Shown: positions 1,452 to 33,398 of the stretch, piece after piece
Position numbering within the stretch: position 1 is the stretch's first letter
Layout of the letters: each line of letters starts with the position of its first letter
Source: a virus
Length of the DNA: 42,963 nucleotides
Reading direction: 5' to 3' (one strand)
IMG/VR virus record: IMGVR_UViG_3300045988_024953
Translations under genes and position numbers: made by a program
The notes under the pieces: model-generated
Told to the model about the DNA's origin: nothing
Databases searched by the model: none
Seen by the model: only the letters and a program-made list of their open reading frames with translations

Positions 1452-2367
1452 GAAAATAATTTACAACAATACAAACATCAGCACGGCCACTACAAGCATG
1501 GCGGCAACTTATGACATGTTTGTGGGGGCTCAGCAAGCTGACAATATCGTTCTAACTTTTGAGGACTCAGACAGCCGGTGGAAAAAATGGGCACCAAAGT
1601 CCGGCGACACCATCGAATACCAGCGCGACGGCGTATCCACTGGCATCATGCACATATATGAGCCGCAACTGCTCAATGGTCTCTGCATCATTCGAGCGTG
1701 CTCCATGCCTCAAGATGCAAAAGTAAAACACTCGAAAAGCTGGCAGCAGGTTCACCTGCTACAATTCGGCAACGAAGTCGCTGCTCGCTTCGGCATGACT
1801 TTCGAGCTTTTAGGATTGAGCGATCTGTACTATGAACACATGCGCCAGGAAAACGAAACAGACATCGGCTTCCTGCAAAAAATCGCAAGCCTCGAAGGTG
1901 CTGCGCTGATCCTATTCAACAACCGGATCATTATGGCTCAGGAAAAACCTCTCGAGGCATCCGACGCAATTTTACAAGTGTCTGCCGCTGGCTCATATAT
2001 CGAGAGCAGTGACAAGCGCGGTCTTGCATACGGATCTGCAGAGGTCCGTGCTGGCGTTTACTACGGAAAATATACCGCAGACGCAAGCAACAAGAGGAAT
2101 TTCTTGCCGGAGCAATCAATCATGGCAGGAAGTAATGCCGAGGCTGCGCGTTTTGCAGCGGGACAACTGAGGCAAATTAACAAACAGCTGACAGATGCAA
2201 AAATGCAGACGTCGCTCATGCCAGAACTAACTGCCGGTGTCAACATAGAACTGACCGGCTCAGATGTTCCGTTCTGGAATGGTAAGAACTACCTCTACCA
2301 TGTCCGGCATGAATACCACAAACAGCAGACCACTCTGTTTATGAGGAAACCACTGGAGGGATATTGA
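1444..2367 (+). CDS. Tail/baseplate hub protein, gpD (late control D) / XkdQ-like
   Basis: 307 aa with a QENETDIGFLQKIASLEGA motif typical of the gpD family. Position after TMP and the LysM protein fits. Confidence 0.65.
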   Translation: MAEKIIYNNTNISTATTSMAATYDMFVGAQQADNIVLTFEDSDSRWKKWAPKSGDTIEYQRDGVSTGIMHIYEPQLLNGLCIIRACSMPQDAKVKHSKSWQQVHLLQFGNEVAARFGMTFELLGLSDLYYEHMRQENETDIGFLQKIASLEGAALILFNNRIIMAQEKPLEASDAILQVSAAGSYIESSDKRGLAYGSAEVRAGVYYGKYTADASNKRNFLPEQSIMAGSNAEAARFAAGQLRQINKQLTDAKMQTSLMPELTAGVNIELTGSDVPFWNGKNYLYHVRHEYHKQQTTLFMRKPLEGY

Positions 2368-2567
2368 TGGACGGAAAAATCATAAAAGGCAAGGTGCTCA
2401 GCATCGACGGCAAGACCGCCAAGGTGGCACCAGTCGACAATATTGACAATGTAAGCCCCGCCATACATGTGGCGGAGTGGATAAAGGCAGAAAGCATAGT
2501 CAAGGAAAGCCTTGTGGCCTACTGCTTATTTCCGGATAACACCGGGATCATACTCTCGAAATTATAA
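2364..2567 (+). CDS. Small baseplate protein, gpV N-terminal OB-fold-like / XkdR-like
   Basis: 67 aa. The pattern GKVLSIDGKTAKVAPVD...VAYCLFPDNTGIILSKL resembles baseplate assembly protein V N-domains. ATGA overlap with the upstream gene. Confidence 0.4.
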   Translation: MMDGKIIKGKVLSIDGKTAKVAPVDNIDNVSPAIHVAEWIKAESIVKESLVAYCLFPDNTGIILSKL

Positions 2568-2578
2568 GGAGGATGCTC

Positions 2579-3040
2579 ATGGCAAAAGCTCAGGCCCAAT
2601 GGGGGAAACACAAATTCCTGATAAGCAGCAACCAGCTCAACCCGATGGGAGACTTCTCAACGTCGTCCGAAGCAAAAGCGTCAGACAGCAAAAGCAAGAA
2701 GAAAAAAACAGAGCTGGAAACTTACACACTGACCGAAACGTGCCACTCCGCCGCCGGAACTGATCCGGTGGCTCATTATAATGCCTGGCGCGCAGATATA
2801 GGCAACTACAACTCGCTTTATATGAACGGGAAAAAGTGGAAAAGCAACCCGCTCAAGTTGCAAAAGGTCTCCCTCGGATCAGTCAAACAGGACGACTTCG
2901 GCCGCATCCGGTACGCCGTCATAAGTTTGACATTTGAAGAAAAGAACCAACGCGAAACCTTCACACTGACATCCCGGGTAACTGCATCAAAATCAGCGAA
3001 AAAAGCGAGAAAGAAATCAAGAAAGAAAAAGAAAAAGTAA
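2579..3040 (+). CDS. Hypothetical tail/baseplate-module protein with a poly-lysine C-terminus
   Basis: AAGGAGG at 2566-2572 favours the ATG at 2579. The C-terminus is KSAKKARKKSRKKKKK. No confident family assignment. Confidence 0.55.
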   Translation: MAKAQAQWGKHKFLISSNQLNPMGDFSTSSEAKASDSKSKKKKTELETYTLTETCHSAAGTDPVAHYNAWRADIGNYNSLYMNGKKWKSNPLKLQKVSLGSVKQDDFGRIRYAVISLTFEEKNQRETFTLTSRVTASKSAKKARKKSRKKKKK

Positions 3041-3054
3041 GGGAGGAAAATGCA

Positions 3055-3345
3055 ATGTTAGGATCAGGAAACGGCGAGCCACAAACGTGCGCCGAAAATT
3101 TATTAAAAACGCCACGCTTCTCTGTACCGTATGAGCGGATCAAAGGCATCGACGGCAGCTTGATCGACTCCCCTGCTGCCACAGCTGGCGATGATATGAT
3201 CGCCGATGCTGAGTGGCTCCTGGAAACATACGAGCCGCGGGTGCAGGTAAACAGCATTGAAGCCAACGAAACCGATGGAGTCGGTGACTTCGGCATTGTG
3301 GCGGATCTATCCATCAATATATTAGACGAGGAGGAAGATGCATGA
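3055..3345 (+). CDS. Baseplate wedge protein, gpW/gp25-like
   Basis: 96 aa with an IADAEWLLETYEPRVQV motif (GPW_gp25-like). It lies immediately upstream of baseplate J. Confidence 0.6.
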   Translation: MLGSGNGEPQTCAENLLKTPRFSVPYERIKGIDGSLIDSPAATAGDDMIADAEWLLETYEPRVQVNSIEANETDGVGDFGIVADLSINILDEEEDA

Positions 3346-4466
3346 GTGACTTAAATTTTATCACGATTGACTCCTCGGAGATTTACGACACCATAATCAC
3401 CGCACTGGAAAACGGCTGCAGCGACGAGCTATATCCTGGAGACGAACGCCGCATATTCGGCGAGGCTCTTGTGGCTGTCATTGTGGCCACATTCAACTCA
3501 GTGAATGATGCTTGCCGCCAGAGACTACTGCGCTACGCCAGAGGCGAAGTCCTGGACGCACTCGGAGAGTCAAGAGGAGTCTTGAGAGAGACACCGGTGT
3601 GCAGCACCGCAACGGAGCGCTTCTCGGTGTCAACAGCAATCGGTGACAATATAGTCATACCAAAGGGCACGCGAGTGACTTGCGACTACTCTCATTACTT
3701 CACTACCGACAAAACGGTCGTACTTCCAGCTGGTTCTTTGTATGTCGATGTCGGTATCACGGCAACAGTCGGCGGTGAGGAATACAACAAGATCCTTCCG
3801 GGATCAATCAATGTCATGGTGGACCAGATCCCATACATTGATAAAGTTGAAAACCTTGCCAAGACATCCGGCGGAGCTGACAAAGAGACGGACGATGTGT
3901 ATCGCGAAAGAATACGAACCAGCAGCGCAAAGGTGTCAGTTGCCGGACCAGCTATCGCCTACAAATACTGGGCCATGGCAGCAGATCCGACGATTGCAGA
4001 CGCGGTTGTTGAGTCTCCGAGCCCTGGTGTTGTTATGATCACGCCGATCGGATATGGTGGGCAGGTGCCAGACGAGTCGCTTCTGGCCAAGGTGCTGGCG
4101 TCCTGCTCTGCCGATGACGTTCGACCACTGACCGACCAGGTAAAGGTGCAAGCTCCGACTGTTGAGGAGTACGACATCGAATTGACCTATTACACATCAG
4201 CGGCAAACGAGTCGAAGTGTGTCAGTACAATCGAAGGAAGCGGCGGAGCTATTGACCAGTACAACTACTGGCAAGGCTCGGCACTAAGCCGAGACATCAA
4301 CCCGGACTATCTTCGCAAGCTAATTCTTGCACCGAGCTGGGGGGATGATCTTGTCGGCGCCGACCGCGTTGATATAGTGAGCCCGGTATATACCGATCTC
4401 AGCAAAACAACCGTCGCAAAATTCTCCGGGACAATCAAAGTATCACATGTCGTAGAGGAGGGATAG
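3342..4466 (+). CDS. Baseplate J-like protein (XkdT/gpJ)
   Basis: 374 aa. Size, position and N-terminal pattern (ELYPGDERRIFGEAL...) are typical of the Baseplate_J family. Confidence 0.8.
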   Translation: MSDLNFITIDSSEIYDTIITALENGCSDELYPGDERRIFGEALVAVIVATFNSVNDACRQRLLRYARGEVLDALGESRGVLRETPVCSTATERFSVSTAIGDNIVIPKGTRVTCDYSHYFTTDKTVVLPAGSLYVDVGITATVGGEEYNKILPGSINVMVDQIPYIDKVENLAKTSGGADKETDDVYRERIRTSSAKVSVAGPAIAYKYWAMAADPTIADAVVESPSPGVVMITPIGYGGQVPDESLLAKVLASCSADDVRPLTDQVKVQAPTVEEYDIELTYYTSAANESKCVSTIEGSGGAIDQYNYWQGSALSRDINPDYLRKLILAPSWGDDLVGADRVDIVSPVYTDLSKTTVAKFSGTIKVSHVVEEG

Positions 4467-4467
4467 C

Positions 4468-5592
4468 ATGAGCATGAAACTTGAAAATGTCGAAATTGTG
4501 AAGCTGCTCCCTCCCTGGATGCGACAAGACGAAGCAAACGCAGCACTCAGCAGATCCGCGAGCTCTCTTTTTCAGGAACCAGCCAAGAGGATCAAACAAC
4601 TCCGGATCTGGGACAAAATTGACGAGCTGGACGATGATATGCTGGACGAGCTGGCCTGGGAGCTGAACATCGACTGGTACAGCTCAGCCATGGAGATCTC
4701 CAAAAAAAGAGCAACCATCAAAGTGGCGCACTTGATCATGGAAAAGCGTGGCACAAAATGGGCTGTCGAACAGCTTATATCCGCGTACTTCGGCACCGGA
4801 TATGTCAAAGAATGGTTTGAGTACGGTGGCGATCCGTATATGTTCCGCGTTTTGACCACCAACCCCGACATCGGGGACGATGGCATGGCTGGCTTTTTCA
4901 AGCAGGTAGACGTTGCCAAAAGTGTCCGATCACACATGGAAGGCGTCTACTTTTACGAGGAACTTGAGCCGGTGATCCTGGTCTCTCCCACTTCTACTGC
5001 TCATGTATTTGAGTATGTAAAATGCGGGACCAGACCAAGATCTGCAAACATCGGCAGGATCAAGACGACCACTATCGAGGCGAGCCCTCAGGCATCGAGC
5101 CATGGTTTTGAATATACACACGCCGGAGACGGTACCAAGGCTGGCACCTACCCACGCCAGGCAAACGTGGCCAAGATAAAAAACGGAGAGGTTGATGCCC
5201 TTCCGCAGTCAAGACATCACCCTTTTGAATATGCCACACACGCCGGGGATGGCACCAAAGCCGGTACCTACCCGAACCGGATGGCTCTGGGTGAAATAAC
5301 AAAAGCAACAGTTGAAGCCGATGGATCCGCCGAAATCATCGGCTTTATGTATGCCAGAACGACCGGCACCTATCCGAGAGCTGCTAACAATGCTGAGATT
5401 ACAACGGCAGCAGTTGAAACAGACGGATCTCTCGATCCGCATCAATTTGAGTATATCAGGAAAGCGGGAACGAGCCCAAGGCACGCCACTCTCGCTGAGA
5501 CAGCTCAAGGAAACATGGAGGCAGCAGGCGCCACCTCGGTGCACTGTTTCACATACACAAAATGCGGCACTAAGAAGTGCGGGCAAAAGTAG
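4468..5592 (+). CDS. Tail protein gpI/XkdU-like with C-terminal tandem repeats
   Basis: N-terminal LPPWMR...LDELAWELNIDWY...KRGTKWAVEQL matches the P2 gpI-type family. The C-terminal half carries six FEY...GT.PR.AN repeats. Confidence 0.65.
   Translation: MSMKLENVEIVKLLPPWMRQDEANAALSRSASSLFQEPAKRIKQLRIWDKIDELDDDMLDELAWELNIDWYSSAMEISKKRATIKVAHLIMEKRGTKWAVEQLISAYFGTGYVKEWFEYGGDPYMFRVLTTNPDIGDDGMAGFFKQVDVAKSVRSHMEGVYFYEELEPVILVSPTSTAHVFEYVKCGTRPRSANIGRIKTTTIEASPQASSHGFEYTHAGDGTKAGTYPRQANVAKIKNGEVDALPQSRHHPFEYATHAGDGTKAGTYPNRMALGEITKATVEADGSAEIIGFMYARTTGTYPRAANNAEITTAAVETDGSLDPHQFEYIRKAGTSPRHATLAETAQGNMEAAGATSVHCFTYTKCGTKKCGQK
5002..5592 (+). repeat. Six degenerate ~33-40-aa coding repeats in the gpI-like protein
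   Basis: The units begin HVFEYVKCGTRPRSAN, HGFEYTHAGDGTKAGTYPRQAN, HPFEYATHAGDGTKAGTYPNRMA, IGFMYARTTGTYPRAAN, HQFEYIRKAGTSPRHAT and HCFTYTKCGTKKCG. Confidence 0.75.
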
Positions 5593-5606
5593 GAAGGAGG
5601 CAACCT

Positions 5607-5921
5607 ATGGCGGCAAATTTTTTCAGTGACAGCTTTATGGCACGCCGTCGGCAGCAGTGGCTCCGCTCTATCCTCAGACTGGAGGTAAGAACCAACGGGA
5701 CGTGGTATGAGGGAGACATCCAGAAGAAAGAAGTCCAGGGCGACACCCTGGTCCTCAATGTTGTGTTTTCTGCCGTCGACAACATGAGCTGCACAATCGA
5801 CCGATCAAGGATTTTCGACGTATATGGCGAAGTTATCCACGAGCAGGTTGAAGCAATCAAAAAGGCAAAAGGCCAGGGCACAATGATCCAGATCAAGGTG
5901 CCGATCAAAGAACCAAGTTAA
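5607..5921 (+). CDS. Hypothetical tail-fibre-module protein
   Basis: AGGAGG at 5595-5600 followed by the ATG at 5607. No recognisable domain. Confidence 0.55.
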   Translation: MAANFFSDSFMARRRQQWLRSILRLEVRTNGTWYEGDIQKKEVQGDTLVLNVVFSAVDNMSCTIDRSRIFDVYGEVIHEQVEAIKKAKGQGTMIQIKVPIKEPS

Positions 5922-5933
5922 GGAGGCGAAACC

Positions 5934-6368
5934 ATGTACAGAGAAACAAAATGGCAGGACGAAATCGTTGACTCCGAAACAAAGGAACTGATCCAGGACG
6001 GAACCGATCAGTCTGCCGGAAATTTCAACAATGCAGAGCATGGCATCAGCGACGCGCATCTTGCGGCACTGATCATGTTCTCTGGGATGCTTCCACAGAT
6101 CCGTGCCAACACTGTGGAAAAAAAGACAGTCACACTGACAAACACGAAGCGCGTCCCATTCAACAATAGCAAAAAGTCCGTCGCTCTTGCTGAAACCAGA
6201 GACTCCCTCAACTACGACGTTGAGGTTGAGGTCGTGGAGACCGCAGGCACCGGCATCGTTGGAGAGTTTGACATCACCGACAAGATGCTCAACGGCTTCA
6301 AAATTGCATACAGCGGAAGCGCCTCAAGCGTAACCGTGAATTTAACCATCAAAGGAGGTAGCAACTAA
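5934..6368 (+). CDS. Putative tail fibre / fibre-associated protein
   Basis: The N-terminal GTDQSAGNFNNAEHGISDAH motif resembles the conserved N-termini of Firmicutes prophage tail fibres (XkdV-like). Confidence 0.45.
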   Translation: MYRETKWQDEIVDSETKELIQDGTDQSAGNFNNAEHGISDAHLAALIMFSGMLPQIRANTVEKKTVTLTNTKRVPFNNSKKSVALAETRDSLNYDVEVEVVETAGTGIVGEFDITDKMLNGFKIAYSGSASSVTVNLTIKGGSN

Positions 6369-6751
6369 TGGCAAAGGAAAAACCAGTGACCGTTGTTGAG
6401 ATCAACGAGGGCACAAAAATCGACTACGAACAGAACGGCACAAAGCTCACATTCGACGATCAGCTTATGATCAACGTGGCAAAGTACCAGAAGGGCTTCC
6501 CGGTACATGTTGACATCTGCATGGATGCTGACAGAAACCTCTGCACCGGCGTGGCTGCTGGACTCTTTTATGTTGCACAGCTTGACATCCCTGCTATCAA
6601 GTACGAGGAGCAGACAACAAGCGAAAACGACAGCTCTGACGAGAATGGCATGAACCCGCAGACGCCACCCGCAGTCATTCCGCTCGATATGTCAGACGTA
6701 ACTCTCACATTATGGAGCATCGACCAGCTGACTCCAGCAACCGAAGAATAG
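6368..6751 (+). CDS. Hypothetical tail-fibre-module protein
   Basis: 127 aa. TAATG coupling with the upstream gene. Acidic C-terminal half. Confidence 0.5.
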   Translation: MAKEKPVTVVEINEGTKIDYEQNGTKLTFDDQLMINVAKYQKGFPVHVDICMDADRNLCTGVAAGLFYVAQLDIPAIKYEEQTTSENDSSDENGMNPQTPPAVIPLDMSDVTLTLWSIDQLTPATEE

Positions 6752-6760
6752 GAGGAAAAC

Positions 6761-7831
6761 ATGAGTAAACCTAATTTTGATTTATCAAATCTGGCGCTCC
6801 AGATGGTGCTGCCAAACAATGAGCTTATTTATGACGACAAGGGGATGCCTTCCGTCATGGTCAAGATCCCAAAATTTAAGATCAGTGACGTGATCACCGG
6901 CGGATCAAGCAACACACACCCTGCCTTTATTGTAAACGGCAAAGAAATCGACGCGATCTACATCAGCAAGTACCTCAATGTTGTTGATGATGGCAGAGCC
7001 TACTCTCTCCCAGGCCAGGATCCGGCGAACACACTCAACTTTGACCAGGCAGTGCAGTATTGCACAGCAAAAGGAGAGGGCTGGCATCTTATGACCAACG
7101 CAGAATGGGCTGCCGTTGAGCTCTGGTGCTTAAAGAATGGCTTCATCCCTAAGGGTAACAACAATTACGGAAAAGACGGATCCGAGAGCAACCGCAAGGC
7201 TATTCCGTCCAACATGGATGGCTCGAACGTCGGAAGAACCGCAACCGGAACCGGTCCTCTTTCCTGGTATCACGACGGAACCGTTTGCGGCATTGCGGAT
7301 CTCAAGGGTGATGTCTGGGAATGGTCTGGCGGCCTCCGTTTTGTATTCGGAGAGGTGCAGGTGCTCGCAGATAACAGCGCCGCGGATCTCGACAACCCTC
7401 AGAACGCATCCAGCGCAATGTGGAAAGCCATTGACGCAACAAGTGGCAGCTTAATCGATCCTAAGGGAGACGGACGCACCGCGAACTCTGTCAAGGTCGA
7501 CATTGTTTCCGGAAAGATGCAGTACACCACCACCATCGCCAACGCTACCGGCAATGTAAACTGCAAATTTGCAGAAATCACTTGCGCGGCGTCAATCGGC
7601 GCAGCAGCGAAGGCAGTCCTCCAGGCGCTCGGTCTGCTCTGCACCGACACCTCTGCAGACTACGCAACAAGCCAGTGCTACCTCAACAATGCAGAGGCAG
7701 AGCGTCTGGTGTCTCGCGGGGGCCGCTGGTACCACTCTGCGTCTGGACTCTTTTCGTTCTACGGCAACATTCCGCGCTCGTCTGTGTACTGGAGCATCGG
7801 TTTCCGCTCCGCTTATTACAAGAAGATCTGA
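6761..7831 (+). CDS. DGR target protein: FGE-sulfatase/C-type-lectin-fold putative receptor-binding tail protein
   Basis: 356 aa. The motifs GWHLMTNAEWAAVELW, GDVWEWSGG and C-terminal WSIGFRSA are typical of the FGE-sulfatase/CLec fold. VR occupies the last ~40 codons. Confidence 0.9.
   Translation: MSKPNFDLSNLALQMVLPNNELIYDDKGMPSVMVKIPKFKISDVITGGSSNTHPAFIVNGKEIDAIYISKYLNVVDDGRAYSLPGQDPANTLNFDQAVQYCTAKGEGWHLMTNAEWAAVELWCLKNGFIPKGNNNYGKDGSESNRKAIPSNMDGSNVGRTATGTGPLSWYHDGTVCGIADLKGDVWEWSGGLRFVFGEVQVLADNSAADLDNPQNASSAMWKAIDATSGSLIDPKGDGRTANSVKVDIVSGKMQYTTTIANATGNVNCKFAEITCAASIGAAAKAVLQALGLLCTDTSADYATSQCYLNNAEAERLVSRGGRWYHSASGLFSFYGNIPRSSVYWSIGFRSAYYKKI
7702..7813 (+). repeat. DGR variable region (VR)
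   Basis: Aligns without gaps to 8280-8391. There are 13 mismatches, all opposite TR adenines. Confidence 0.93.
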
Positions 7832-7857
7832 CAATCTGATAATCTGAGGATCTGATC
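7826..7857 (+). repeat. 8-bp tandem array: ATCTGA x4 with 2-nt spacers
   Basis: The sequence is atctgaca atctgata atctgagg atctgatc. The TGAs at 7829, 7837, 7845 and 7853 cover all three frames, and the first is the target gene's stop codon. Confidence 0.85.
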
Positions 7858-7882
7858 AGGGGCGCCCGCCAAAGCGCCCCTG
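7857..7882 (+). promoter_or_regulatory. GC-rich stem-loop downstream of VR (candidate DGR target-recognition hairpin and/or terminator)
   Basis: caggggcgc (7857-7865) pairs with gcgcccctg (7874-7882) around an 8-nt loop ccgccaaa, followed by gttattta. Confidence 0.6.
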
Positions 7883-7905
7883 GTTATTTATGAGAAAGGA
7901 AGCAC

Positions 7906-8247
7906 ATGGCAGATTTAAAACTACAACAAAAGATTGAGAGGATGATCTCAAAGTCATCCATCTGGATCAACAATATGCCAAAGCCCGACAAATTCGTGCT
8001 CGGCGAAGAAATAAGAAGATCAGAGTGGATGATGCTCCGGTGGAGTATTCTGGGAAATGCTACACATAAAAGCAAACGACCATATCAGGAAAAGATTGAC
8101 GACGAGCTCAAGGTGCTCAAAGGCTTCATTGATCTGGCCGTGCAGCCAGAAAATAAGCTGATCAGTCCAGGAGCTCACGGAGAATGGACTGCGATGCTGA
8201 CAGAAATCGGCTGCATCCTCGGTGGATGGATAAACCGCACAACATGA
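7906..8247 (+). CDS. avd: DGR accessory variability determinant (Avd)
   Basis: 113 aa, basic and helical. The C-terminal TEIGCILGGWINR resembles the EVGRILGSWIARVN of Bordetella phage Avd. It lies between the target gene and TR. Confidence 0.85.
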   Translation: MADLKLQQKIERMISKSSIWINNMPKPDKFVLGEEIRRSEWMMLRWSILGNATHKSKRPYQEKIDDELKVLKGFIDLAVQPENKLISPGAHGEWTAMLTEIGCILGGWINRTT

Positions 8248-8279
8248 TCGCACCGTGGGGGATGTGCCGGGAAATCGTG

Positions 8280-8391
8280 GCGTCTGGTGTATCGCGGGGG
8301 CAACTGGAACAACTCTGCGAATGGACTCTTTTCGTTCAACGGCAACAATCCACGCTCGAATGTGAACTGGAGCATCGGTTTCCGCTCCGCT
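8280..8391 (+). repeat. DGR template region (TR)
   Basis: This is the invariant copy of VR, with 23 adenines. In the VR frame it has 9 AAY codons plus one TAT. It is non-coding and sits between avd and the RT gene. Confidence 0.93.
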
Positions 8392-8582
8392 CTGGTCTAT
8401 TTTGTTGAGGATCCACGGCACTCATGGGTGCCTGGCAACGGTCCAGATCAAAGGGGCACGTCTCCCGGTATAGAAATCTATACCAAAGACAGATCCGCCT
8501 GACAATGGGCGGTGTTTACTGCGTAGGCTGGCCGGATCATCGGATTGTCACGCGCAGCTATTAAAGAACAAAGGAGGCAACA
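8392..8582 (+). ncRNA. TR-RT spacer, probably part of the DGR template RNA
   Basis: Non-coding. Three stem-loops: ggcac/gtgcc (8417-8432), ggtataga/tctatacc (8467-8484) and ccgcc/ggcgg (8495-8512). Confidence 0.5.
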
Positions 8583-9692
8583 ATGGAACAATGTAAAAAC
8601 ATGTTCGAGAAAATCTACGCATGGGAGAACCTTCTGGACGCATATCACCATGCAGCCAGTGAGAAATGGTTCCGCGACGACGTGGCGGCCTTCTCTGCTC
8701 ATCTGGGTGAAAACCTAACAGACATTCAAAACTCGCTTATCTGGAAAACATACACGGTTGGAAGGTATCGCGAGTTTTATGTTTATGAGCCAAAAAAGCG
8801 CCTTGTCATGGCTCTGAATTTTCGTGACAGAGTTGTGCAGTGGGCGATATATTTGCAGCTCAATCCTCTGCTCGACAATCAATTTATTTACCACAGCTAC
8901 GGCTGCCGGGTAGGCAAAGGAACAACCAGAGCTGCCGATCAACTTCAATACTGGATGCGCATGGCAGACAGAAAACCAATTCCCTGGTACTATTTGAAGC
9001 TCGATATATCAAAGTATTTTTACCGAGTGGACCATAATGTCCTGCTCGGGATCCTCAGGAGAAAATTCAAGGGAGAGGATGACCTGCTCTGGTTGATGGA
9101 TAAGATCATCAACTGCGACCACACTCCCTTCGGATTGCCTCCTGGGCTTAATGTTGACGACATACCGCCAAGTGAGCGACTTTTTGAAGTCGGGATGCCG
9201 ATCGGCAACTTGACGAGCCAACTGCTTGCAAATGTGTGTCTTAATGAGCTGGATCAGTACATCAAGCACGAGCTCCGCGTCCATTGTTATGTCAGATATA
9301 TGGACGACATGGTGCTACTGCATCCGGACAAGACTTTCCTCAACAAGTGCAAGGATCTGATTGAGGAATATCTCAACGATATACTTCACCTGGAGCTCAA
9401 CAGCAAGACAACCATCGGCAAAGTCTCCTGCGGGATCACTTTTGTCGGGTATGTAATCCGGCCAACATACCGGAAACTAAAACGCAAGTCGCTCCGCAAA
9501 ATGAAGGCACGCATCCGTTACATCCAAAAGGAGTACGAAAGCGGCCTCATTGATTTTGAGGACGTCAACAACACGATGCAGAGCTACTTCGGACAGATGT
9601 CAAACTTTGACAGCTATGGACTCAGGAAGTGGATCACTGAAAACATCGCCTTCCAGCGCGGAGAGACACGCGGGAAAGGAGGTATCACATGA
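8583..9692 (+). CDS. DGR reverse transcriptase
   Basis: 369 aa. YMDD at 9297-9308 and the DGR-hallmark IGNLTSQ at 9201-9221. AGGAGG RBS upstream. Confidence 0.95.
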   Translation: MEQCKNMFEKIYAWENLLDAYHHAASEKWFRDDVAAFSAHLGENLTDIQNSLIWKTYTVGRYREFYVYEPKKRLVMALNFRDRVVQWAIYLQLNPLLDNQFIYHSYGCRVGKGTTRAADQLQYWMRMADRKPIPWYYLKLDISKYFYRVDHNVLLGILRRKFKGEDDLLWLMDKIINCDHTPFGLPPGLNVDDIPPSERLFEVGMPIGNLTSQLLANVCLNELDQYIKHELRVHCYVRYMDDMVLLHPDKTFLNKCKDLIEEYLNDILHLELNSKTTIGKVSCGITFVGYVIRPTYRKLKRKSLRKMKARIRYIQKEYESGLIDFEDVNNTMQSYFGQMSNFDSYGLRKWITENIAFQRGETRGKGGIT

Positions 9693-10036
9693 TCGACATC
9701 AGCATCCTGATCGCAGTCATCGGCGTCGTTTTATCTATCGCAACATTTTACTTCGGCCGCCAGGCTGGAGCAAAGCAAGATGGGAAAAGCGCCGGAGCGC
9801 TGGAGACAGACATCAGCTACATCAAGGAAAGCGTGCAGCGCATTGAAACCCAGCTCAATCGAGACGTGCAAAGGCTCGAGGGGCGCATCGACGAGATCAG
9901 CAATCAAATGAGCATTATCAGCAACACGGCCGGTAGAGCCCACGAGTCCGCTAAGTCGGCGCACAATCGCATCGACGAGCACTTGCAGCGCGAGCACAAC
10001 ATCACAGTGGAAAGGGGACGGACAAATGAGACGTAA
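9689..10036 (+). CDS. Membrane-anchored coiled-coil protein of the lysis cassette
   Basis: 115 aa with an N-terminal TM helix followed by a coiled coil. ATGA overlap with the RT stop. It precedes the holin and endolysin. Confidence 0.45.
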   Translation: MIDISILIAVIGVVLSIATFYFGRQAGAKQDGKSAGALETDISYIKESVQRIETQLNRDVQRLEGRIDEISNQMSIISNTAGRAHESAKSAHNRIDEHLQREHNITVERGRTNET

Positions 10037-10328
10037 ACGCCCAGAATTTTCAAAGACAATACTCAAAGCCGTGGCAATCGCCACGGTTGTTATTGTCGTA
10101 CTGTCTTTCAAGCTCATGTTTGAGACTGGAGACACTTCCGCCCTGGCGTACATTGTGCCGGGGATATTCACAGAGTTGTCTGCAGCTACCGGCTTTTACT
10201 TTTGGAAAGCAAAGGCCGAGAACCAGATCAAACTCGACATTGTGAGACAGAAGAAACTAAAAGATCAAAAACATCCGGATGATGATCCGGAAGAAAGTGA
10301 GGCAGATTATGACAACAGAACAGATTAG
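10026..10328 (+). CDS. Holin (two TM helices, charged C-terminus)
   Basis: 100 aa with two hydrophobic helices and an acidic/basic tail. It lies immediately upstream of the endolysin. Confidence 0.65.
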   Translation: MRRKRPEFSKTILKAVAIATVVIVVLSFKLMFETGDTSALAYIVPGIFTELSAATGFYFWKAKAENQIKLDIVRQKKLKDQKHPDDDPEESEADYDNRTD

Positions 10329-11292
10329 ACAGAAAGTCGTTGAAAAGATGCGCAGCTGGATCGGCTGCAAGGAAAGCGACGGATCGCACAAAAAGATCAT
10401 TGATCTCTACAACAGCCACAAGCCTCTCGCGCGAGGCTATGCCGTCAAATACACAGACGCATGGTGCGCCACAACGGTGTCGGCTGCATCCATCGCCTGC
10501 GGATTGACTGACATCATGCCAACAGAGTGCGGATGCGACGCAATGATCAAACTCTACCGGAATTTAGGTAGATGGGAGGAAAACGACGCATACAGACCGA
10601 GCCCTGGCGATGTTGTTTTTTACGACTGGGACGACAACGGCATCGGCGACAACCGCGGATCCTCTGATCATGTCGGAGTAGTCGACCATGTATCTGGCAA
10701 CACGATCACAATTATCGAAGGCAACAAGAGCAACGCAGTCGGTACCAGAGAGATCCAGGTCAATGGCAAATACATCAGAGGCTACGGCTTGCCTAATTAT
10801 GCAAGCAAAGCAACATCAGCGAGCCACACAGAAAAACCGGCAACATTGAAGCATAAGGCTGGAGATATTGTAAAATTTACCGGCTCAACTCATTACAAAA
10901 GCTCAGACGCATCCAGCGGCGTGAGCTGCAAGGCAGGCACAGCCAAGATTACTGCAGTATTTGAAAAGGGCAAGCATCCGTATCACCTTATTGCCGAAAA
11001 AGGCGGCGGCTCTACGGTTTATGGCTGGGTAGACACCAAAGACATCGGAGAAACTTCTCAGGCTTCTCCTGCTGCCTCTGCTTCGTTCTCAGTGGGCGAC
11101 AAGGTAAAAGTCAGAGGATCGGTTCATTGTTACGGTAACGGATCCGGAGGCGACGCAAACAGAGACGGCTCCACAATGTACGTTGTCGGGCTTGTGAGCT
11201 CCAAAACTTACAAATATTACATCGGCGTGGCTGACAAAAAAGGCGGCGCTCGTATTGGATGGGCTGAGCCTTCTCAGCTCTCTCACTGCTAA
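10309..11292 (+). CDS. Endolysin: N-terminal CHAP-type peptidase plus two C-terminal SH3-like wall-binding repeats
   Basis: Motifs AWCATTVS (Cys), GDVVFYDWD and SDHVGVV (His), then two GD.VK..GS.H... repeats. The ORF is open from 10279 and I prefer the ATG at 10309. Confidence 0.85.
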   Translation: MTTEQIRQKVVEKMRSWIGCKESDGSHKKIIDLYNSHKPLARGYAVKYTDAWCATTVSAASIACGLTDIMPTECGCDAMIKLYRNLGRWEENDAYRPSPGDVVFYDWDDNGIGDNRGSSDHVGVVDHVSGNTITIIEGNKSNAVGTREIQVNGKYIRGYGLPNYASKATSASHTEKPATLKHKAGDIVKFTGSTHYKSSDASSGVSCKAGTAKITAVFEKGKHPYHLIAEKGGGSTVYGWVDTKDIGETSQASPAASASFSVGDKVKVRGSVHCYGNGSGGDANRDGSTMYVVGLVSSKTYKYYIGVADKKGGARIGWAEPSQLSHC

Positions 11293-11303
11293 GGAGGTAC
11301 ACT

Positions 11304-11807
11304 ATGAACATAAACCAGATCATCGGCATCGTTATCGTTTTGATCCTTTTGCCACTTATCGCCTATCTTCTCTCTGTTGCGGTCTCCTACATGAAGGCCA
11401 AGGCTGAGAACATCCAGAACCAGACTGTCAAAGATATTGTTTTGGATGCCATCGACACCGTTGAGCAGTCCGTCCTCTATGTCATGCAGACGTATGTGGA
11501 CGCATTGAAACGTGGCGGCACATTCACTAAAGAAGCACAGCAGGCTGCGTTTGAAAAAGCTGCGGAACGCGCGAGAGAATTGATCACAGACGAGGTCAAG
11601 GCAATGATCTCGGCAACCTATGGAGATTTTGATAAATGGTTAGAGACTCGCATTGAGAAAGAAGTCCGAGCGAATAAAACAGAAAAGCCGGAGACGGATC
11701 ACACAGTTGAAGCAGCGACCACTGCTGCCAGTGTGGCGGCAACTGTCGCATCCACTGCAGTCCAGCAACTCGCAGCCGAAGTGTCCGACGCGACGCCTCG
11801 TGAATAA
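11304..11807 (+). CDS. LL-H-type holin-like membrane protein
   Basis: 167 aa with an N-terminal TM helix and a DAIDTVEQSVLYVMQTY pattern resembling the Holin_LLH family. Confidence 0.5.
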   Translation: MNINQIIGIVIVLILLPLIAYLLSVAVSYMKAKAENIQNQTVKDIVLDAIDTVEQSVLYVMQTYVDALKRGGTFTKEAQQAAFEKAAERARELITDEVKAMISATYGDFDKWLETRIEKEVRANKTEKPETDHTVEAATTAASVAATVASTAVQQLAAEVSDATPRE

Positions 11808-11830
11808 TCACAAACGATAAAACAAAAAAG

Positions 11831-11863
11831 CCCAGCAGGACCATCACCTGCTGGGTGTTTTTT
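11831..11863. terminator. Bidirectional rho-independent terminator between convergent lysis and integrase genes (also a candidate attP)
   Basis: cccagcagg (11831-11839) pairs with cctgctggg (11847-11855). It is flanked by an A-run upstream and a T-run downstream. Confidence 0.7.
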
Positions 11864-16075: not shown

Positions 16076-16829
16076 ATATAACAAAAGAGGCAGCCAGCCG
16101 ATCAGATCGGTCGCTACCTCTCAGGACGTTCCGGAGCCCACAACTCAAAGGAAGTCCACAACCATCATAGCACGAAAACGCAGAAAGCGCAATCGAAAAA
16201 GTCACATCAAGCGATTGATCAGCAGATTGAACACCCGCCGGATCGTATTCCTGGTCGCTGGTGCCTGCATGACGGTCGTGATTGTGATCTGTATCGTGAA
16301 GCTGGTCGCAGGACATAGCAACACAGAGACAGAAATAACGACATCCGGAACCGCCTCCGGGTATGACCTCAAGACATACTACTTTGTCTATGAGGACAAC
16401 GATGGCGAACCGGTCTACATAAACATGGACGAGCTGACAAAAGCATGGGCGTCCGAAGCTGGATTTGAGCGTCGCTACGCTCTCACTGACGAGGAACGCT
16501 ACGAGATCGCCCAGGTTGTAACCGCTGAGGCAGACGGCGAGTGCTTCGCCGGAAAGATGGCGATCTGCCAGTGCATACTCCAGGCGGCTGAGGATGACAA
16601 CATCCGCCCGACTGAGGTATTCACAAAATACTCATACAGCAAGCGCAGGCCAGAACCATCCCAGGACGCTCTGGATGCCGTGATGCAGGTATTTGACTTC
16701 GGCACTGTTGTCACAAAGGAGCCGATCAAGTATTTCTACAATCCCGAACTTGTCGAGAGCAAGTTCCACGAGTCTCAGACGTATGTCACAAAGATCGGCG
16801 ACCATGTATTTTTCAGCGAGAGGAAGTGA
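16068..16829 (+). CDS. Membrane-anchored SleB/CwlJ-type cell-wall hydrolase
   Basis: Basic N-terminus, a TM helix (IVFLVAGACMTVVIVICIV), and C-terminal IAQVVTAEADGE...AICQCILQ...FYNP motifs of the Hydrolase_2 family. Confidence 0.7.
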   Translation: MNEYNKRGSQPIRSVATSQDVPEPTTQRKSTTIIARKRRKRNRKSHIKRLISRLNTRRIVFLVAGACMTVVIVICIVKLVAGHSNTETEITTSGTASGYDLKTYYFVYEDNDGEPVYINMDELTKAWASEAGFERRYALTDEERYEIAQVVTAEADGECFAGKMAICQCILQAAEDDNIRPTEVFTKYSYSKRRPEPSQDALDAVMQVFDFGTVVTKEPIKYFYNPELVESKFHESQTYVTKIGDHVFFSERK

Positions 16830-16834
16830 TCAGC

Positions 16835-17662
16835 ATGGCGGCAGCCAACTCAACCAAAACAGCAGCGGGAAAAACTGCGGAGACGCCAAAGGAAACAAAA
16901 CCAGACCGCACCACTCTCACGCTGCAGCAGAAATTCGTGGAGATCCGCAAGGCTATCCCGGCAATACAACAGCAGGCGCACAGCGATGGCGTCAAGTACA
17001 AATTCGCCAAGATCTACGACGTCTACAAACTCATGGCTCCAGCGCTCAATGAGTGGGGCGTGAATTTTGACATCACAGAGGAGACTGCGACCAGACACGC
17101 AGAAAACGGCGACGAAATCTACTACTCCAATTTTGTGCAGCACACAAGGTCTGGTGATCGCGTTGTCTGGATATACGAGGCGGAGCTGACGATCCGGTGG
17201 ACGAACGCAGACAACCCTGACGACTGCATGGATGTCACTCTCCATGCCATAGGAACCAATGACAGCGGACCGGACAAGGCAAAAGGATCCGCCTGGACGT
17301 ACTGCCTCAAATATTACTTTTTTGAGAAGTTCAATATTGACCAGGGCGATGATGATCCGGACAACTACGACCACGCAACAGAGCCTCAGACGGCTCAAAA
17401 CGGCTCCGGAGATAATACTGGAGCAAATAATCGACCAAGCAATCAAAAAGGCAGTCACGGACAGAAACAGAGCTCACAGCGTCTAAGTGAGGCGCAGCTC
17501 AACCGGATGTATCGCAAGGCAGAGGACGCAGGCATGACCAGAGAACAGACTGACGCCAGGATCCTGCAGTGTTACGGATTACAGAACCCGGCAGAACTGA
17601 CGCGGCAGCAGTATGACGGTATATGCGAGCAGCTGGACGCATCTGTCAAAGGCGGCCACTAA
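16835..17662 (+). CDS. ERF-family single-strand annealing recombinase
   Basis: YKFAKIYDVY...KAKGSAWTYCLKYYF pattern typical of ERF. It lies adjacent to SSB. Confidence 0.75.
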   Translation: MAAANSTKTAAGKTAETPKETKPDRTTLTLQQKFVEIRKAIPAIQQQAHSDGVKYKFAKIYDVYKLMAPALNEWGVNFDITEETATRHAENGDEIYYSNFVQHTRSGDRVVWIYEAELTIRWTNADNPDDCMDVTLHAIGTNDSGPDKAKGSAWTYCLKYYFFEKFNIDQGDDDPDNYDHATEPQTAQNGSGDNTGANNRPSNQKGSHGQKQSSQRLSEAQLNRMYRKAEDAGMTREQTDARILQCYGLQNPAELTRQQYDGICEQLDASVKGGH

Positions 17663-19528: not shown

Positions 19529-20109
19529 AAAAGACACACGTCAACAGCAATGTCGACCTCAACACTCTGGCAGGCGGAGCCTTCGCTGAAAAGGTCAACG
19601 AGGCACTCGTCCAGGTGGGCGAGAACATCCAGAACCAGAACACAGAGGCGACCAAAAAGAGAAAGATCACCATCACGATGACTTTCGCACCAAACAAGAC
19701 CAGACAGCTGGTAAACACGCAGATCGGCGTCACTACTACTCTTGCCGCAACCGAGGCGGTCGACACCCAGATGGTCATGGGAATGAATATGAGAACCGGC
19801 CAGCTTGAGATCGGTGAGTACGACGGACAGATCCGCGGGCAGATGTCGATCAATGAGATCCTCGAGGAAGGCAAGAAAGCCGGTGAGGAAATCATGGAAA
19901 CCGCAGACAAGATGATCGCCGCACAGCAGGCTACTGGCGACGCAGAGGTCGCAGCTGGCGAGCCGCTCGATTTAAAAAAACGCGGGCAGCAGTCGCCAGA
20001 GGCAGAGACACCTGAGGAAAAGCCGGAACCAGACTTTGATCCGGAAACCGGCGAGATCTTCGAGAATGGCAAAGGCGGCAAAGTGATCGCAATGGCAAAG
20101 CAGGCATAA
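19525..20109 (+). CDS. Conserved phage protein (often annotated as phage-associated replication-terminator-like)
   Basis: The N-terminal LNTLAGGAFAEKVNEAL...KRKITITMTF pattern is recalled from Clostridia phage homologues. Function unproven. Confidence 0.35.
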   Translation: MKKTHVNSNVDLNTLAGGAFAEKVNEALVQVGENIQNQNTEATKKRKITITMTFAPNKTRQLVNTQIGVTTTLAATEAVDTQMVMGMNMRTGQLEIGEYDGQIRGQMSINEILEEGKKAGEEIMETADKMIAAQQATGDAEVAAGEPLDLKKRGQQSPEAETPEEKPEPDFDPETGEIFENGKGGKVIAMAKQA

Positions 20110-20122
20110 GGAGGAAAAGAAC

Positions 20123-20860
20123 ATGATCAAAGAGGCAATCGCTTATATCACAAACCTGGCAGTCCAGGCAGAAAAACCGGAAGTTTTAGAAATCAATGGC
20201 AGAACATACTGCACCAAGAACATGACCAGATACGACAAGGCAGACATGGCGGATCCTATCAAAGCCACCACCCTCACATCCCTGGTCGACTACATCAAGC
20301 AGAGACGTGACGAGCTCCGCGAGCACATGATCATCCAGGTCGTGAGCGCAACAGAGGTCAGAATGTACTCCGGGTTGCTTGACGAGCGCGACCGTGAGGA
20401 GCTTTTTGTGGTCAATGCCCTGCTCCCTCGCTTCGAGTTCGGTCAGCAGTATGACCAGGAGAGCTTCATCGTCTCCCTGCAGTCGTGTTTCCAGAACAAC
20501 GGAGACCGCGAGGCTGTCGCGATGCTTGCCAGCAACATCGTGAACAATCAGCAGCAGGAATACTCTGACGACGGCATCACACAGCAGGCAGTCATCAAGA
20601 CTGGCATCACAACAAAGCAGGCCGCACTCGTGCCGAACCCGGTGCACCTCGTACCGTACCGCACATTCCTGGAGGTTGAACAGCCTGCCAGTGACTTCGT
20701 GTTCCGCATCAGTGAAGGACGCGGAGGCGAGCCGGTGTTCAAGCTGGTGGCAGCAGATGGCGGTCTCTGGAAGGCTGAGGCGGTCGACAACATCAAGAAA
20801 TACCTGGAGGATGCTCTCGACGGTATTGAGAACCGCGAACAAATCACCATCATCGCATAA
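20123..20860 (+). CDS. Hypothetical conserved phage protein
   Basis: 245 aa with a GGAGGA RBS. No confident domain. Confidence 0.55.
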   Translation: MIKEAIAYITNLAVQAEKPEVLEINGRTYCTKNMTRYDKADMADPIKATTLTSLVDYIKQRRDELREHMIIQVVSATEVRMYSGLLDERDREELFVVNALLPRFEFGQQYDQESFIVSLQSCFQNNGDREAVAMLASNIVNNQQQEYSDDGITQQAVIKTGITTKQAALVPNPVHLVPYRTFLEVEQPASDFVFRISEGRGGEPVFKLVAADGGLWKAEAVDNIKKYLEDALDGIENREQITIIA

Positions 20861-20958
20861 TATGATCCCGACATAAATGTCGGAAACATCCGGGAGAGCG
20901 CACTGCTCTCCTGGAATACATACAAGGAGCCCACAATCAACCAAAGGAGGAACAGACC

Positions 20959-22911: not shown

Positions 22912-23169
22912 ATGAAAAATTCACTCCAGGACCTCAACAACTATCTTTTTGAGAGTTTGGAACGTATCAACGACGACGATCTCACAGACGAGGAGCTCGA
23001 GAAAGAAATCAAAAGATCCGAAGCCGTGACGAAAGTCGCAAGCACTATCATCAACAACGCCGAGGTGCAGCTCAAGGCTCTGCAGTACGCTGACGAGTAT
23101 GGATACAACAACAGCGGCAAGCACCTGGTCGGTTCGATGGTACCGGAGCTGGAGGTGTCTGATAAATGA
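22912..23169 (+). CDS. Hypothetical protein
   Basis: AGGAGG at 22898-22903 with the ATG at 22912. Acidic and helical. Confidence 0.55.
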   Translation: MKNSLQDLNNYLFESLERINDDDLTDEELEKEIKRSEAVTKVASTIINNAEVQLKALQYADEYGYNNSGKHLVGSMVPELEVSDK

Positions 23170-23984
23170 GAAAACCATGGCCTCAGGAAGTCAACGACTG
23201 GCTCGCCGAGAATGTACCAGGAAGAACAACCCGAGAAATCACTGAGTTGATCAACTGCCAGGGCTTCGATAAGCGCTACGGCATGACATTCACGGAGAAT
23301 ATGGTCAAAGGAGCAAAGAACCGACTCCATATTAAAAGCGGGACACCTGGAGGACTGCCGAAAGGCAGCTCTCTCCTCTACCCGGAAGGTATGGAGGCTT
23401 ATGTGCGAAGTATTGCAGCAGGAAGAAAGACGGACGAGATCGCCAGGATGGTCTCCGAGCACTTCGGGATCGAGTTCACTGCCAGACAATGCCGGGCATA
23501 CAAGAAAAACCATGGCATCCAGAGCGGCGTCGATTGCCGATTTGTAAAAGGTCAGGAGCCACCGAACAAAGGCAAGCCCATGACGCCGGAACAATATGAG
23601 AAAGCCCGACCGACAATGTTCAAAAAGGGAAACATCCCAGCCAATCACATGAATGTCGGCGACATTTCCAGAACAACGGACGGCTACCTGATCAAAAAGG
23701 TGCAGGAAGATGGAATACAGCGCGAGCGCTGGGCTTTTCTGCATCGACTTGTCTGGGAAGAACACAACGGACCAATCCCCGAGGGGAAAATGGTCTCTTT
23801 CCTGGATGGAAACAAAGACAACTGCGACATCAACAATCTTGTACTGGTTGACAATGAGATCAATCTGGAACTCAACCGGAGCGATCTGAGGAGCGAACAC
23901 GCAGAGATCACAGAGGTCGGCGTTGCTATTGCCGCCCTAAAGGTTGCAACCAGAAGCAGGAAGAAACGGAGGAAACAAGCATGA
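23166..23984 (+). CDS. HNH-family (HNH_3-like) DNA-binding/endonuclease protein with duplicated N-terminal HTH modules
   Basis: C-terminal FLHRLVWEEHNGPIPEGKMVSFLDGNKDNCDINNLVLV pattern. The usual HH before DGN is replaced by FL. Confidence 0.6.
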   Translation: MRKPWPQEVNDWLAENVPGRTTREITELINCQGFDKRYGMTFTENMVKGAKNRLHIKSGTPGGLPKGSSLLYPEGMEAYVRSIAAGRKTDEIARMVSEHFGIEFTARQCRAYKKNHGIQSGVDCRFVKGQEPPNKGKPMTPEQYEKARPTMFKKGNIPANHMNVGDISRTTDGYLIKKVQEDGIQRERWAFLHRLVWEEHNGPIPEGKMVSFLDGNKDNCDINNLVLVDNEINLELNRSDLRSEHAEITEVGVAIAALKVATRSRKKRRKQA

Positions 23985-27674: not shown

Positions 27675-27684
27675 GGAGGACGAC

Positions 27685-33130: not shown

Positions 33131-33139
33131 GAGGAAACC

Positions 33140-33388: not shown

Positions 33389-33398
33389 GAGGTACAAG

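Follow-up and report, generated by a model that had tools for sequence, protein, structure and literature searches.

The genome assembly IMGVR_UViG_3300045988_024953 of the IMG/VR collection, a stretch of 42,963 nucleotides (nt) that is referred to here in its full length as the window, raises the question why two neighbouring copies of a 112-nt sequence, one at the end of a tail-protein gene and the other in a non-coding region, differ from each other exclusively at adenines of the second copy. As set out below, it can be stated with high confidence that a diversity-generating retroelement (DGR) of a temperate phage is present in the window, with all its parts and apparently in an active state. 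The element is a DGR of an already well described type, the closest described relative being that of Faecalibacterium phage FP_Lagaffe. By analogy with known systems, it likely diversifies the predicted ligand-binding face of a C-type-lectin-fold tail protein, the likely purpose being to track changing host receptors.

The upstream copy, the variable repeat (VR; 7702-7813, plus strand), and the downstream copy, the template repeat (TR; 8280-8391, plus strand), align without gaps at a constant offset of 578 and are identical at 99/112 positions. All 13 mismatches are adenines in the TR, at positions 8291, 8302, 8303, 8308, 8311, 8320, 8321, 8338, 8348, 8352, 8359, 8360 and 8365, which are replaced in the VR by C, C, G, T, C, T, C, T, T, G, T, C and T, respectively. 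The TR comprises 23 adenines, 10 of which are retained in the VR, and none of its 89 non-adenine positions differs; the hypergeometric probability that 13 random mismatches all strike the 23 adenines is 3.4e-11. Beyond both ends of the homology, similarity falls to noise at once. The tabulated pairwise alignment thereby reproduces the alignment, offset, mismatch positions, substituted bases, adenine restriction and abrupt ends given in the initial annotation, which had also translated both copies correctly in the frame of the target gene.

Within that gene the VR covers codons 314-351 of 356 and ends five codons before the stop codon, while the non-coding TR is located between avd and the reverse transcriptase (RT) gene, 191 nt upstream of the RT start. 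Read in the target frame, the adenines of the TR occupy the first and second positions of nine AAY codons and single positions of the codons TAT, AGC, ATC, GGA and CCA. The initial annotation had equated the variable sites with nine AAY codons and one TAT; these codons are indeed present in the TR, but the VR of the window alters only eight of the nine AAY codons together with TAT, retains AAC at 8344-8346 and shows in addition a silent change of CCA to CCG (8352). Other alleles demonstrate that the AGC (8371) and ATC (8374) codons carry mutable adenines as well, with S345G and I346L/F/V as the resulting exchanges. Both adenines fall within the last 25 shared bases, and the proposal that these bases are free of substituted adenines and correspond to an initiation of mutagenic homing (IMH) element is therefore not supported in this form. 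Inspection of the codons reveals that no substitution at a TR adenine can create a stop codon, and the theoretical repertoire calculated from the TR codons amounts to 4^23 DNA sequences and about 2.5e12 proteins (15^9 x 4^3). An A-masked scan, relaxed blastn and tblastn detected no second VR or target paralogue in the window.

The target gene (6761-7831, plus strand) closes the tail/baseplate module and encodes a protein of 356 amino acids (aa) with C-type-lectin/formylglycine-generating enzyme (FGE) fold. It matches the Pfam family FGE-sulfatase above the curated cut-off (8.8e-8) and phrog_2889 (2.8e-123). Among solved structures, the variable protein TaqVP of a Thermus aquaticus DGR (PDB 5VF4; PMC6328139) is a full-length homologue, matching residues 22-352 with an E-value of 2.9e-57 and with the C-terminal VRs of both proteins aligned. 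An AlphaFold2 model based on 65 homologues (pLDDT 91.6, pTM 0.92) retrieved TaqVP first in a Foldseek search (TM 0.90/0.84), followed by FGE, PvdO and EgtB and then by Mtd of BPP-1, which is a distant structural relative with a TM of about 0.3. In the structural alignment, target and TaqVP share 33-34% identity. TaqVP originates from the DGR of a bacterial thermophile, whereas the target belongs to a phage tail module, and the variable residues differ between the two. The combination of a C-type-lectin/FGE fold with variable residues in the C-terminal part, which characterizes the Mtd/TvpA/TaqVP class, is thus found in the target, and by analogy with BPP-1 the protein is likely a receptor-binding protein.

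Both protein components of a DGR are encoded next to the repeat. The gene avd (7906-8247, plus strand) specifies a protein of 113 aa which matches the Pfam family bAvd (PF22296, 1.4e-13) with 51.7 bits at a cut-off of 40, as well as phrog_3206 'Avd protein of DGR' (2.5e-24); a comparison by sequence with solved structures in the PDB gave no significant match. The RT gene (8583-9692, plus strand) encodes 369 aa with a match to RVT_1 above the curated Pfam cut-off (6.6e-22) and to phrog_1423 'Reverse transcriptase' (8.9e-144). Its best PDB match is the RT of BPP-1, bRT (8ub7), which aligns in two stretches with an E-value of 1.3e-41, about 25 orders of magnitude better than group II intron RTs (3e-16) and retron-type RTs (1.5e-15). 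In the DGR clade of RTs the motif QGxxxSP is replaced by [I/V/L]GxxxSQ (PMC7826257), a signature to which the sequence IGNLTSQ at residues 207-213 conforms; it corresponds to I181-GSLTSQ187 of bRT. The motif YMDD is present, and Arg73 and Ile207 are equivalent to Arg74 and Ile181 of bRT, both of which were shown by experiment to promote adenine mutagenesis. Together with the fold of the target and the alleles described below, the partner genes and the RT signature support the initial reading of the locus as a DGR that acts on AAY codons of its target gene. Retrons are marked by an msr/msd non-coding RNA beside the RT, and group II introns by ribozyme domains that surround the RT ORF and by an RT with QGxxxSP and a maturase/X domain. 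A retron or group II intron was rejected as identity of the element, since the RT carries IGxxxSQ instead of QGxxxSP, the match to bRT is far better and no Rfam families are present: a search of the whole window at gathering thresholds, as well as a search of 7800-8650 at E <= 1, returned none, which excludes the known RNA families of group II introns and retrons.

Upstream of the RT gene, the RNA surrounding the TR displays a succession of conserved elements. A duplex of 12 bp, termed stop duplex, is formed between GGGGGAUGUGCC (8257-8268, plus strand), which ends 11 nt upstream of the TR, and GGCACGUCUCCC (8455-8466, plus strand). In an alignment of 52 sequences, 98.1% of its cells are paired and compensatory double changes are found in 9/12 pairs. 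A second duplex, P1, joins UGGUCU (8393-8398, plus strand), beginning 2 nt after the end of the homology, with AGAUCA (8445-8450), which runs into a nearly invariant AAA (8450-8452; feature 8445-8452, plus strand). Here 89.4% of the cells are paired, and all pairs (6/6) show compensatory double changes. When pairing partners were swapped between sequences, the mean energy changed from -24.6 (native) to -17.4 kcal/mol for the stop duplex and from -8.5 to -4.3 kcal/mol for P1, and in both cases 0/5000 permutations reached the native mean. Sliding the register reduced pairing to 33-60%, and in a comparison of the whole structure with 500 shuffles four of five measures were matched by no shuffle and the fifth by one. 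The TR occupies precisely the interval from the stop duplex to P1, and this bracketing accounts for the abrupt ends of the VR/TR homology. In alignment A1, invariance is complete for A80, A81 and G83 (window 8451, 8452 and 8454) and nearly complete for A79 (8450); A8450 is proposed as the priming adenosine, in analogy to Sp A56 in the spacer (Sp) of BPP-1. A local hairpin GGGG...UCCC (8453-8466), suggested by RNAalifold, was rejected because the 12-bp duplex with 8257-8268 is far better supported.

P1 encloses a hairpin, P2 (8413-8435, plus strand), with 9 bp, a bulged C8416 and the tetraloop CAUG, which may be regarded as the analogue of the Avd-binding stem-loop and fits the description of such stem-loops across 207 DGRs. 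Directly after the stop strand (feature 8467-8489, plus strand) follow P4, a 7-bp hairpin with the loop AAAU (8467-8484), and then AAAGA (8485-8489), the putative analogues of a stop stem-loop and of its A-minor adenosines. Length variation blurs the MAFFT columns at both sites, so that P2 appears 60.7% paired, the inner five pairs of P4 51.9% (mostly gapped) and its outer two 80.8%; P2 and P4 were accordingly judged from per-sequence folds. According to these folds, most family members possess a bulged, tetraloop-capped hairpin of about 9 bp at the P2 site, and most of the 52 sequences continue from the stop strand with a short hairpin and AAAGA or AAAAA.

The remaining distal spacer (8490-8582, plus strand) is the most variable part in the family, differing in length and sequence, and the spacing between TR and RT ranges from 150 to 330 nt. 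It includes further hairpins, for instance at 8495-8512, and the ribosome-binding site of the RT gene, and its minimum free energy fold has a z-score of -2.7. The spacer is possibly the counterpart of the thumb-ring and RT-binding RNA. The hairpin 8495-8512, situated after the stop element and ahead of the RT start codon, is GC-rich and terminator-like (CCGCCUGACAAUGGGCGG, followed by a U-rich stretch); it could act as an attenuator of RT expression or belong to the RT-binding RNA.

On the target side, the VR ends in an adenine-free, G+C-rich segment of 17 nt (7797-7813, plus strand; TCGGTTTCCGCTCCGCT) that is identical to TR positions 8375-8391. This segment is invariant in all alleles except for a single T to G change and nearly invariant across the RT family. 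Its analogue in BPP-1 is the (GC)14 half of the IMH, and integration of the cDNA would accordingly begin here if BPP-1 is taken as the model. Located 43 nt after the VR is a GC-rich inverted repeat (7857-7882, plus strand), CAGGGGCGC-ccgccaaa-GCGCCCCTG, with a stem of 9 bp. By analogy it is probably a DNA hairpin or cruciform used for target recognition, and it may also terminate transcription of the target gene. In most family members a GC-rich hairpin follows the VR at a distance of 40-47 nt; the stem sequences vary yet remain complementary, and many copies have no T-tract. In the subfamily of the window (about 55 related loci compared), a loop of 7-8 nt, CCRCCAAA, is conserved, and distant members of the RT family have GRNA loops.

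Natural diversification of the VR with an invariant TR is visible in sibling genomes from other samples, which were searched with an A-masked TR pattern and with a flank-anchored pattern that leaves the VR unconstrained. Four contigs of the same phage (L001, L002, L083 and L084) were recovered, which are more than 99.4% identical to the window and have identical TRs. Their VRs differ from that of the window at 11, 14, 16 and 16 positions, respectively, all of them TR-adenine positions. Inside the 112-nt VR are located 11 of the 36 differences found over 9.7 kb aligned for L001, 14 of 18 over 8.9 kb for L002, 16 of 16 over 2.9 kb for L083 and 16 of 17 over 2.9 kb for L084, so that the density of differences in the VR exceeds the background, where this is non-zero, about 40- to 400-fold. 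Altogether six VR alleles are known at the DNA level (the window, L001, L002, L083 identical to L084, L167 identical to L168, and L169), and the TR is identical wherever it is present on the contig; the contig L169 does not contain it. The check named in the initial annotation, a comparison of VR alleles among related phages, thus yielded an invariant TR and VRs that differ at TR-adenine positions, with rare exceptions.

The same pattern is observed at the protein level. A cluster of target proteins at 90% comprises 1,381 distinct sequences, and among 32 of its members all 13 columns with an entropy above 1 bit lie in the VR (residues 318, 322, 324, 325, 328, 334, 336, 337, 341, 343, 344, 345 and 346). 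Twelve of these correspond to adenine-bearing codons of the window TR, and the thirteenth is residue 344, encoded by TGG. Variation at residue 344 was considered as a sign of non-adenine mutagenesis and is largely explained by the TR of a 357-aa sublineage, which reads ACG at this site and accounts for the residues T, A and P; where G and R occur in the lineage of the window, they are real non-adenine changes. The underlying TR polymorphism comprises TGG AGC (W S) at 8368-8373 of the window and ACG AAC (T N) at TR positions 89-94 of the sublineage (L170-L175). The consensus of the wider family is likewise ACG AAC, and TR position 100 (window 8379) is T in the window and C in L170-L175. With TGG AGC in place of ACG AAC, the TR of the window has two fewer adenines and a tryptophan codon that is normally beyond its own mutagenesis. 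One-codon deletions recur at AACAAT (window 8344-8349, in the context GGC AAC AAT), namely in the VR encoding protein P0150 (residue 337, 355 aa) and in an eroded TR described below, which points to slippage when the CAACAA repeat is reverse-transcribed.

The foremost alternative is a DGR that was once active and is now inactive in this genome, with the VR/TR differences and the alleles as historical traces. Activity is judged here from assemblies, the cassette decays in siblings, either by erosion of the TR (L165/L166) or by a spacer deletion of 156 nt (L176), and some DGRs of Faecalibacterium phages show no read-level signal in culture (PMC11792537). In the window, however, all parts are intact, including a full-length RT with its motifs, a full-length avd, the 23 TR adenines and the RNA pairings. 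Moreover, VRs differ at 14-16 sites between genomes that show no or almost no other differences, which indicates that diversification is recent and proceeds much faster than background divergence. An inactive relic is thus considered very unlikely.

Further support for an active DGR comes from the family of related loci, which were fetched mostly through the RT protein. In 112 loci a repeat pair of about 110-120 nt was found, with the copies about 570-640 nt apart and the downstream copy 150-330 nt upstream of the RT gene, and 1,520/1,704 mismatches (89%) strike adenines of the latter copy. No base bias is displayed by the other repeats of these loci, which are situated in tail and endolysin genes. 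In 95 non-redundant pairs, 57% of the TR adenines differ from the VR, compared with 0.66% of C, 0.2% of G and 1.06% of T; since these pairs had been pre-filtered for at least 80% mismatches at adenines, the rates at the other bases are lower bounds. The spectrum comprises A to G (638), A to T (345) and A to C (327). An ordinary segmental duplication or gene-conversion tract between a coding sequence and a non-coding copy, diverging by ordinary mutation, for which the existence of a direct repeat and nothing more can be adduced, is virtually ruled out, as the mismatch pattern is base-specific and one-directional: in the window all 13 mismatches strike adenines of one copy, the same asymmetry recurs in the 112 related loci with unbiased control repeats, and genes for Avd and a DGR-type RT are adjacent. 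Hardly any more credence is due to an assembly artefact in which mis-threaded repeat copies or collapsed variants produced a chimeric VR; microdiversity in the VR is known to disturb assembly (PMC5883640) and the allele of the window could be a consensus or mosaic, but exactly the protein encoded in the window is on record on seven contigs (P0121), the structure of the locus recurs in many independent assemblies, and a mosaic VR would leave the interpretation unchanged.

Several observations nevertheless weigh against the interpretation as an active DGR that works in the manner of BPP-1. Activity is deduced from differences between assemblies, and no convincing promoter of the avd-TR-RT unit was found. 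The hairpins P2 and P4 are backed by per-sequence folds, without clean column-wise covariation. Mutagenesis is not fully adenine-specific, as rare T to G, T to C and T to A changes occur: T89 to G in L167/L168, whose cognate TR is that of the window, T89 to C together with T77 to A in L169, and T102 to G in L083/L084 relative to their own TR. The affected sites correspond to window positions 8368 (89), 8356 (77) and 8381 (102). T89, which lies in the codon of W344 within the variable surface, was altered at least twice independently, and selection may enrich rare RT errors in this codon. In BPP-1, the IMH combines a (GC)14 half identical to the TR with a 21-bp half in which a few VR/TR mismatches (IMH*) set the directionality (PMC3240598). 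A counterpart of this 21-bp IMH/IMH* pair was not found, the flanks past 7813 and 8391 being unrelated; unlike in BPP-1, the VR/TR homology of the window ends at the putative start of the cDNA, and the IMH as defined on BPP-1 may not be general. Finally, published phage DGRs show stems of 7-10 bp with a GRNA tetraloop 4-34 bp from the VR (PMC3240598), with BPP-1 at a distance of 4 bp, whereas the GC-rich hairpin that follows the VR in the window has an 8-nt loop, CCGCCAAA, and lies 43 nt away.

Despite these differences, the correspondence with the prototype BPP-1 is extensive. The gene order mtd-avd-TR-brt is the same, an Avd protein is present, and adenine-specific transfer is directed into the 3' end of a gene for a C-type-lectin-fold tail protein. 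The RTs share the IGxxxSQ motif and the equivalents of R74 and I181. In the ribonucleoprotein of BPP-1, the first element after the TR is a template:primer duplex; it surrounds the stem-loop bound by Avd and extends to Sp A56, the priming adenosine. After two more nucleotides, Sp pairs with the 3' end of avd in a duplex named 'cPRT Stop', which is followed by a small stem-loop and by unpaired A-minor adenosines, and cDNA synthesis stops just ahead of the stop duplex (bioRxiv 10.1101/2023.10.23.563531). The succession of P1, P2, AAA, 12-bp duplex, P4 and AAAGA in the window matches this arrangement element by element. A difference concerns the 5' strand of the stop duplex, which is located in the intergenic region between avd and TR in the window and inside avd in BPP-1.

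On this basis, the following course of events can be proposed, in which the priming nucleotide and the exact ends of the cDNA are placed by inference from BPP-1. The region comprising avd, TR, spacer and RT would be transcribed, and the RNA would fold such that the 12-bp duplex (8257-8268/8455-8466) and the 6-bp duplex (8393-8398/8445-8450) bracket the TR. Avd would dock onto the internal hairpin 8413-8435, and the RT-Avd complex would prime cDNA synthesis at the conserved adenosine that ends the 6-bp duplex (about A8450). The TR would then be copied from about 8392/8391 to 8280, with random nucleotides inserted opposite the 23 adenines, until synthesis halts before the 12-bp duplex. The resulting cDNA would replace its 112-nt homologue, positions 7702-7813 at the 3' end of the gene for the tail protein, presumably guided by the adenine-free 17-mer and by the GC-rich hairpin 43 nt downstream.

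The closest cultured relative is the Lagaffevirus FP_Lagaffe, with 73% identity in the RT and 76% in TerL. Synteny is identical and comprises a P2 gpI-like baseplate gene, three small genes, the target of the FGE superfamily, an annotated Avd, the RT, two small genes, endolysin and holin. As in the window, 13/13 mismatches of the VR/TR pair of FP_Lagaffe are located at adenines. The spacer is about 265-280 nt long in the Lagaffe-like subgroup, compared with 191 nt in the window, and a second VR has been reported for FP_Lagaffe, whereas the window has none. Activity of the FP_Lagaffe DGR, its read-level VR variability and its Mtd-like target have been published (PMC5883640, PMC11792537).

In two cases the cassette is altered in sibling genomes. 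The first is represented by a prophage (L165) on a 197-kb contig, adjoining smpB and the gene for RNase R, which is 96.9% identical to the window over 11.2 kb aligned. The copy at its TR position (L165:7523-7631, equal to L166:5052-5160 and corresponding to window 8280-8391) is 109 nt long and contains only nine adenines. Relative to the intact TR of the sublineage (L170-L175) it shows 14 substitutions, all of them at adenines (P = 1.9e-11), and a deletion of 3 nt, while each of its flanks is identical at 198/200 positions and avd and the RT gene are intact. The VR of L165 derives from the intact TR (16/17 mismatches at A) and not from the eroded copy. Since L165 and L166 are 100% identical, the eroded TR rests on one strain, and none was found in IMG/VR. 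From the sequence, it seems that the template itself has been adenine-mutagenised; possibly, a VR allele was instead mis-threaded into the TR locus during assembly.

Natural DGRs have been described as keeping their TR unchanged, in contrast to engineered SSAP-coupled DGRs, for which alone TR erosion has so far been reported; these engineered systems need a single-strand annealing protein (SSAP) for installation of the cDNA. The pattern in L165 resembles that in such systems in E. coli (DGRec and related), which are synthetic and dependent on CspRecT. The phage of the window encodes an SSAP of the Erf family (16826-17662), and the family of the DGR lacks an IMH/IMH* pair. By analogy, the Erf protein might conceivably take part in retrohoming or contribute to TR erosion, and cDNA could be annealed by an Erf-type SSAP both to the VR and to the TR locus. 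We tentatively entertain the idea, though without committing to it, that the directionality of retrohoming is leaky in this lineage and that a natural DGR might exhaust itself through mutagenesis of its own template.

In the second case (L176:4060-4680), a deletion of 156 nt between two CATCGG direct repeats (window ~8379-8534) removes the 3' end of the TR, P1, P2, the priming adenosine, the stop strand and P4. The RT gene is intact; no avd ORF was called, though the avd region aligns with that of the window. This cassette is presumably dead.

In the window, the cassette exhibits the canonical order of target open reading frame (ORF), GC-rich hairpin, avd, TR, 191-nt spacer and RT gene. It is flanked by baseplate genes (baseplate J and P2 gpI-like) on one side and by lysis genes (holin-like, CHAP endolysin and holin) on the other. 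In the gene of the P2 gpI-like baseplate/tail protein, the part for the C-terminal half contains direct repeats (5002-5454, e.g. 5116-5153 and 5236-5273) that recur about every 100-120 nt and hold recurring HAGDGTKAGTYPR motifs; mismatches between these repeats are spread over all bases, and they were used as a control for adenine bias. An exact terminal overlap of 55 nt (1-55 identical to 42909-42963, in direct orientation) identifies the window as a complete circular assembly, about 42.9 kb in size. The circular cut falls inside a long repetitive ORF, probably encoding the tape measure protein, of which an open frame of 583 codons crosses the junction.

Further genes encode a serine integrase, a repressor, the Erf-type annealing protein, replication proteins and three DNA methyltransferases as well as the structural components terminase, portal, protease, major head protein and tail sheath. 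The source is a temperate, contractile-tailed phage of human-gut Clostridia. Its nearest cultured phages are FP_Lagaffe and Roseburia phage Shimadzu, and RT relatives at about 72% are found in genomes of Lachnospiraceae, Oscillospiraceae and other gut Clostridia. The exact TR is absent from species-representative genomes, so that the host is deduced from relatives alone, and a megablast search with window 6000-10000 gave no nucleotide match among GenBank phages. The early region is densely packed with DNA-modification genes (20959-22359, 23981-24541, 26539-27306 and 27613-29034), including three ORFs that resemble DNA methyltransferases, one of which is fused to a ParB-like domain, and a separate ParB-like protein; the same region also holds an HNH endonuclease (23166-23984) and, at 24552-25076, a nucleoside 2-deoxyribosyltransferase-like ORF.

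In the prophage L165 (11048-12590, compared with window 11807-11862), the host genes smpB and RNase R start shortly after the holin gene, and in the circular form the serine integrase gene begins 55 nt after holin. Because the holin gene adjoins host genes in the integrated state and the serine integrase gene in the circular one, attP is expected either at about 11808-11861 or within the 3' end of the integrase gene, and the site of integration beside smpB. The sibling contig L001 (IMGVR_UViG_3300029711_000281, 22.6 kb) consists of four distant pieces of the phage genome joined at 98.4-100% identity, which map to window 19880-21213, 32422-35248, 42095-42207 and 2077-11807. It lacks about 11.2 kb and about 6.8 kb between pieces as well as a segment across the window ends and represents either a heavily deleted derivative or a mis-assembly.

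With these results the annotation of the locus is settled: the 'SUMF1/sulfatase-modifying-factor-like' tail gene encodes a hypervariable protein that likely binds the receptor, Avd is the product of the small ORF, and the enzyme labelled 'retron-type RT' belongs to the DGR RTs. In assemblies and analyses of single-nucleotide polymorphisms of this phage, a hypervariable patch of 112 nt is to be expected. The siblings reveal three natural routes by which a cassette changes or dies, namely TR polymorphism, erosion of TR adenines and spacer deletion. This is of relevance for DGR engineering in continuous evolution, where TR erosion is a practical problem. Moreover, the family of more than 100 loci provides independent covariation support, in phages of Bacillota, for the RNA elements of the BPP-1 cryo-EM structure.

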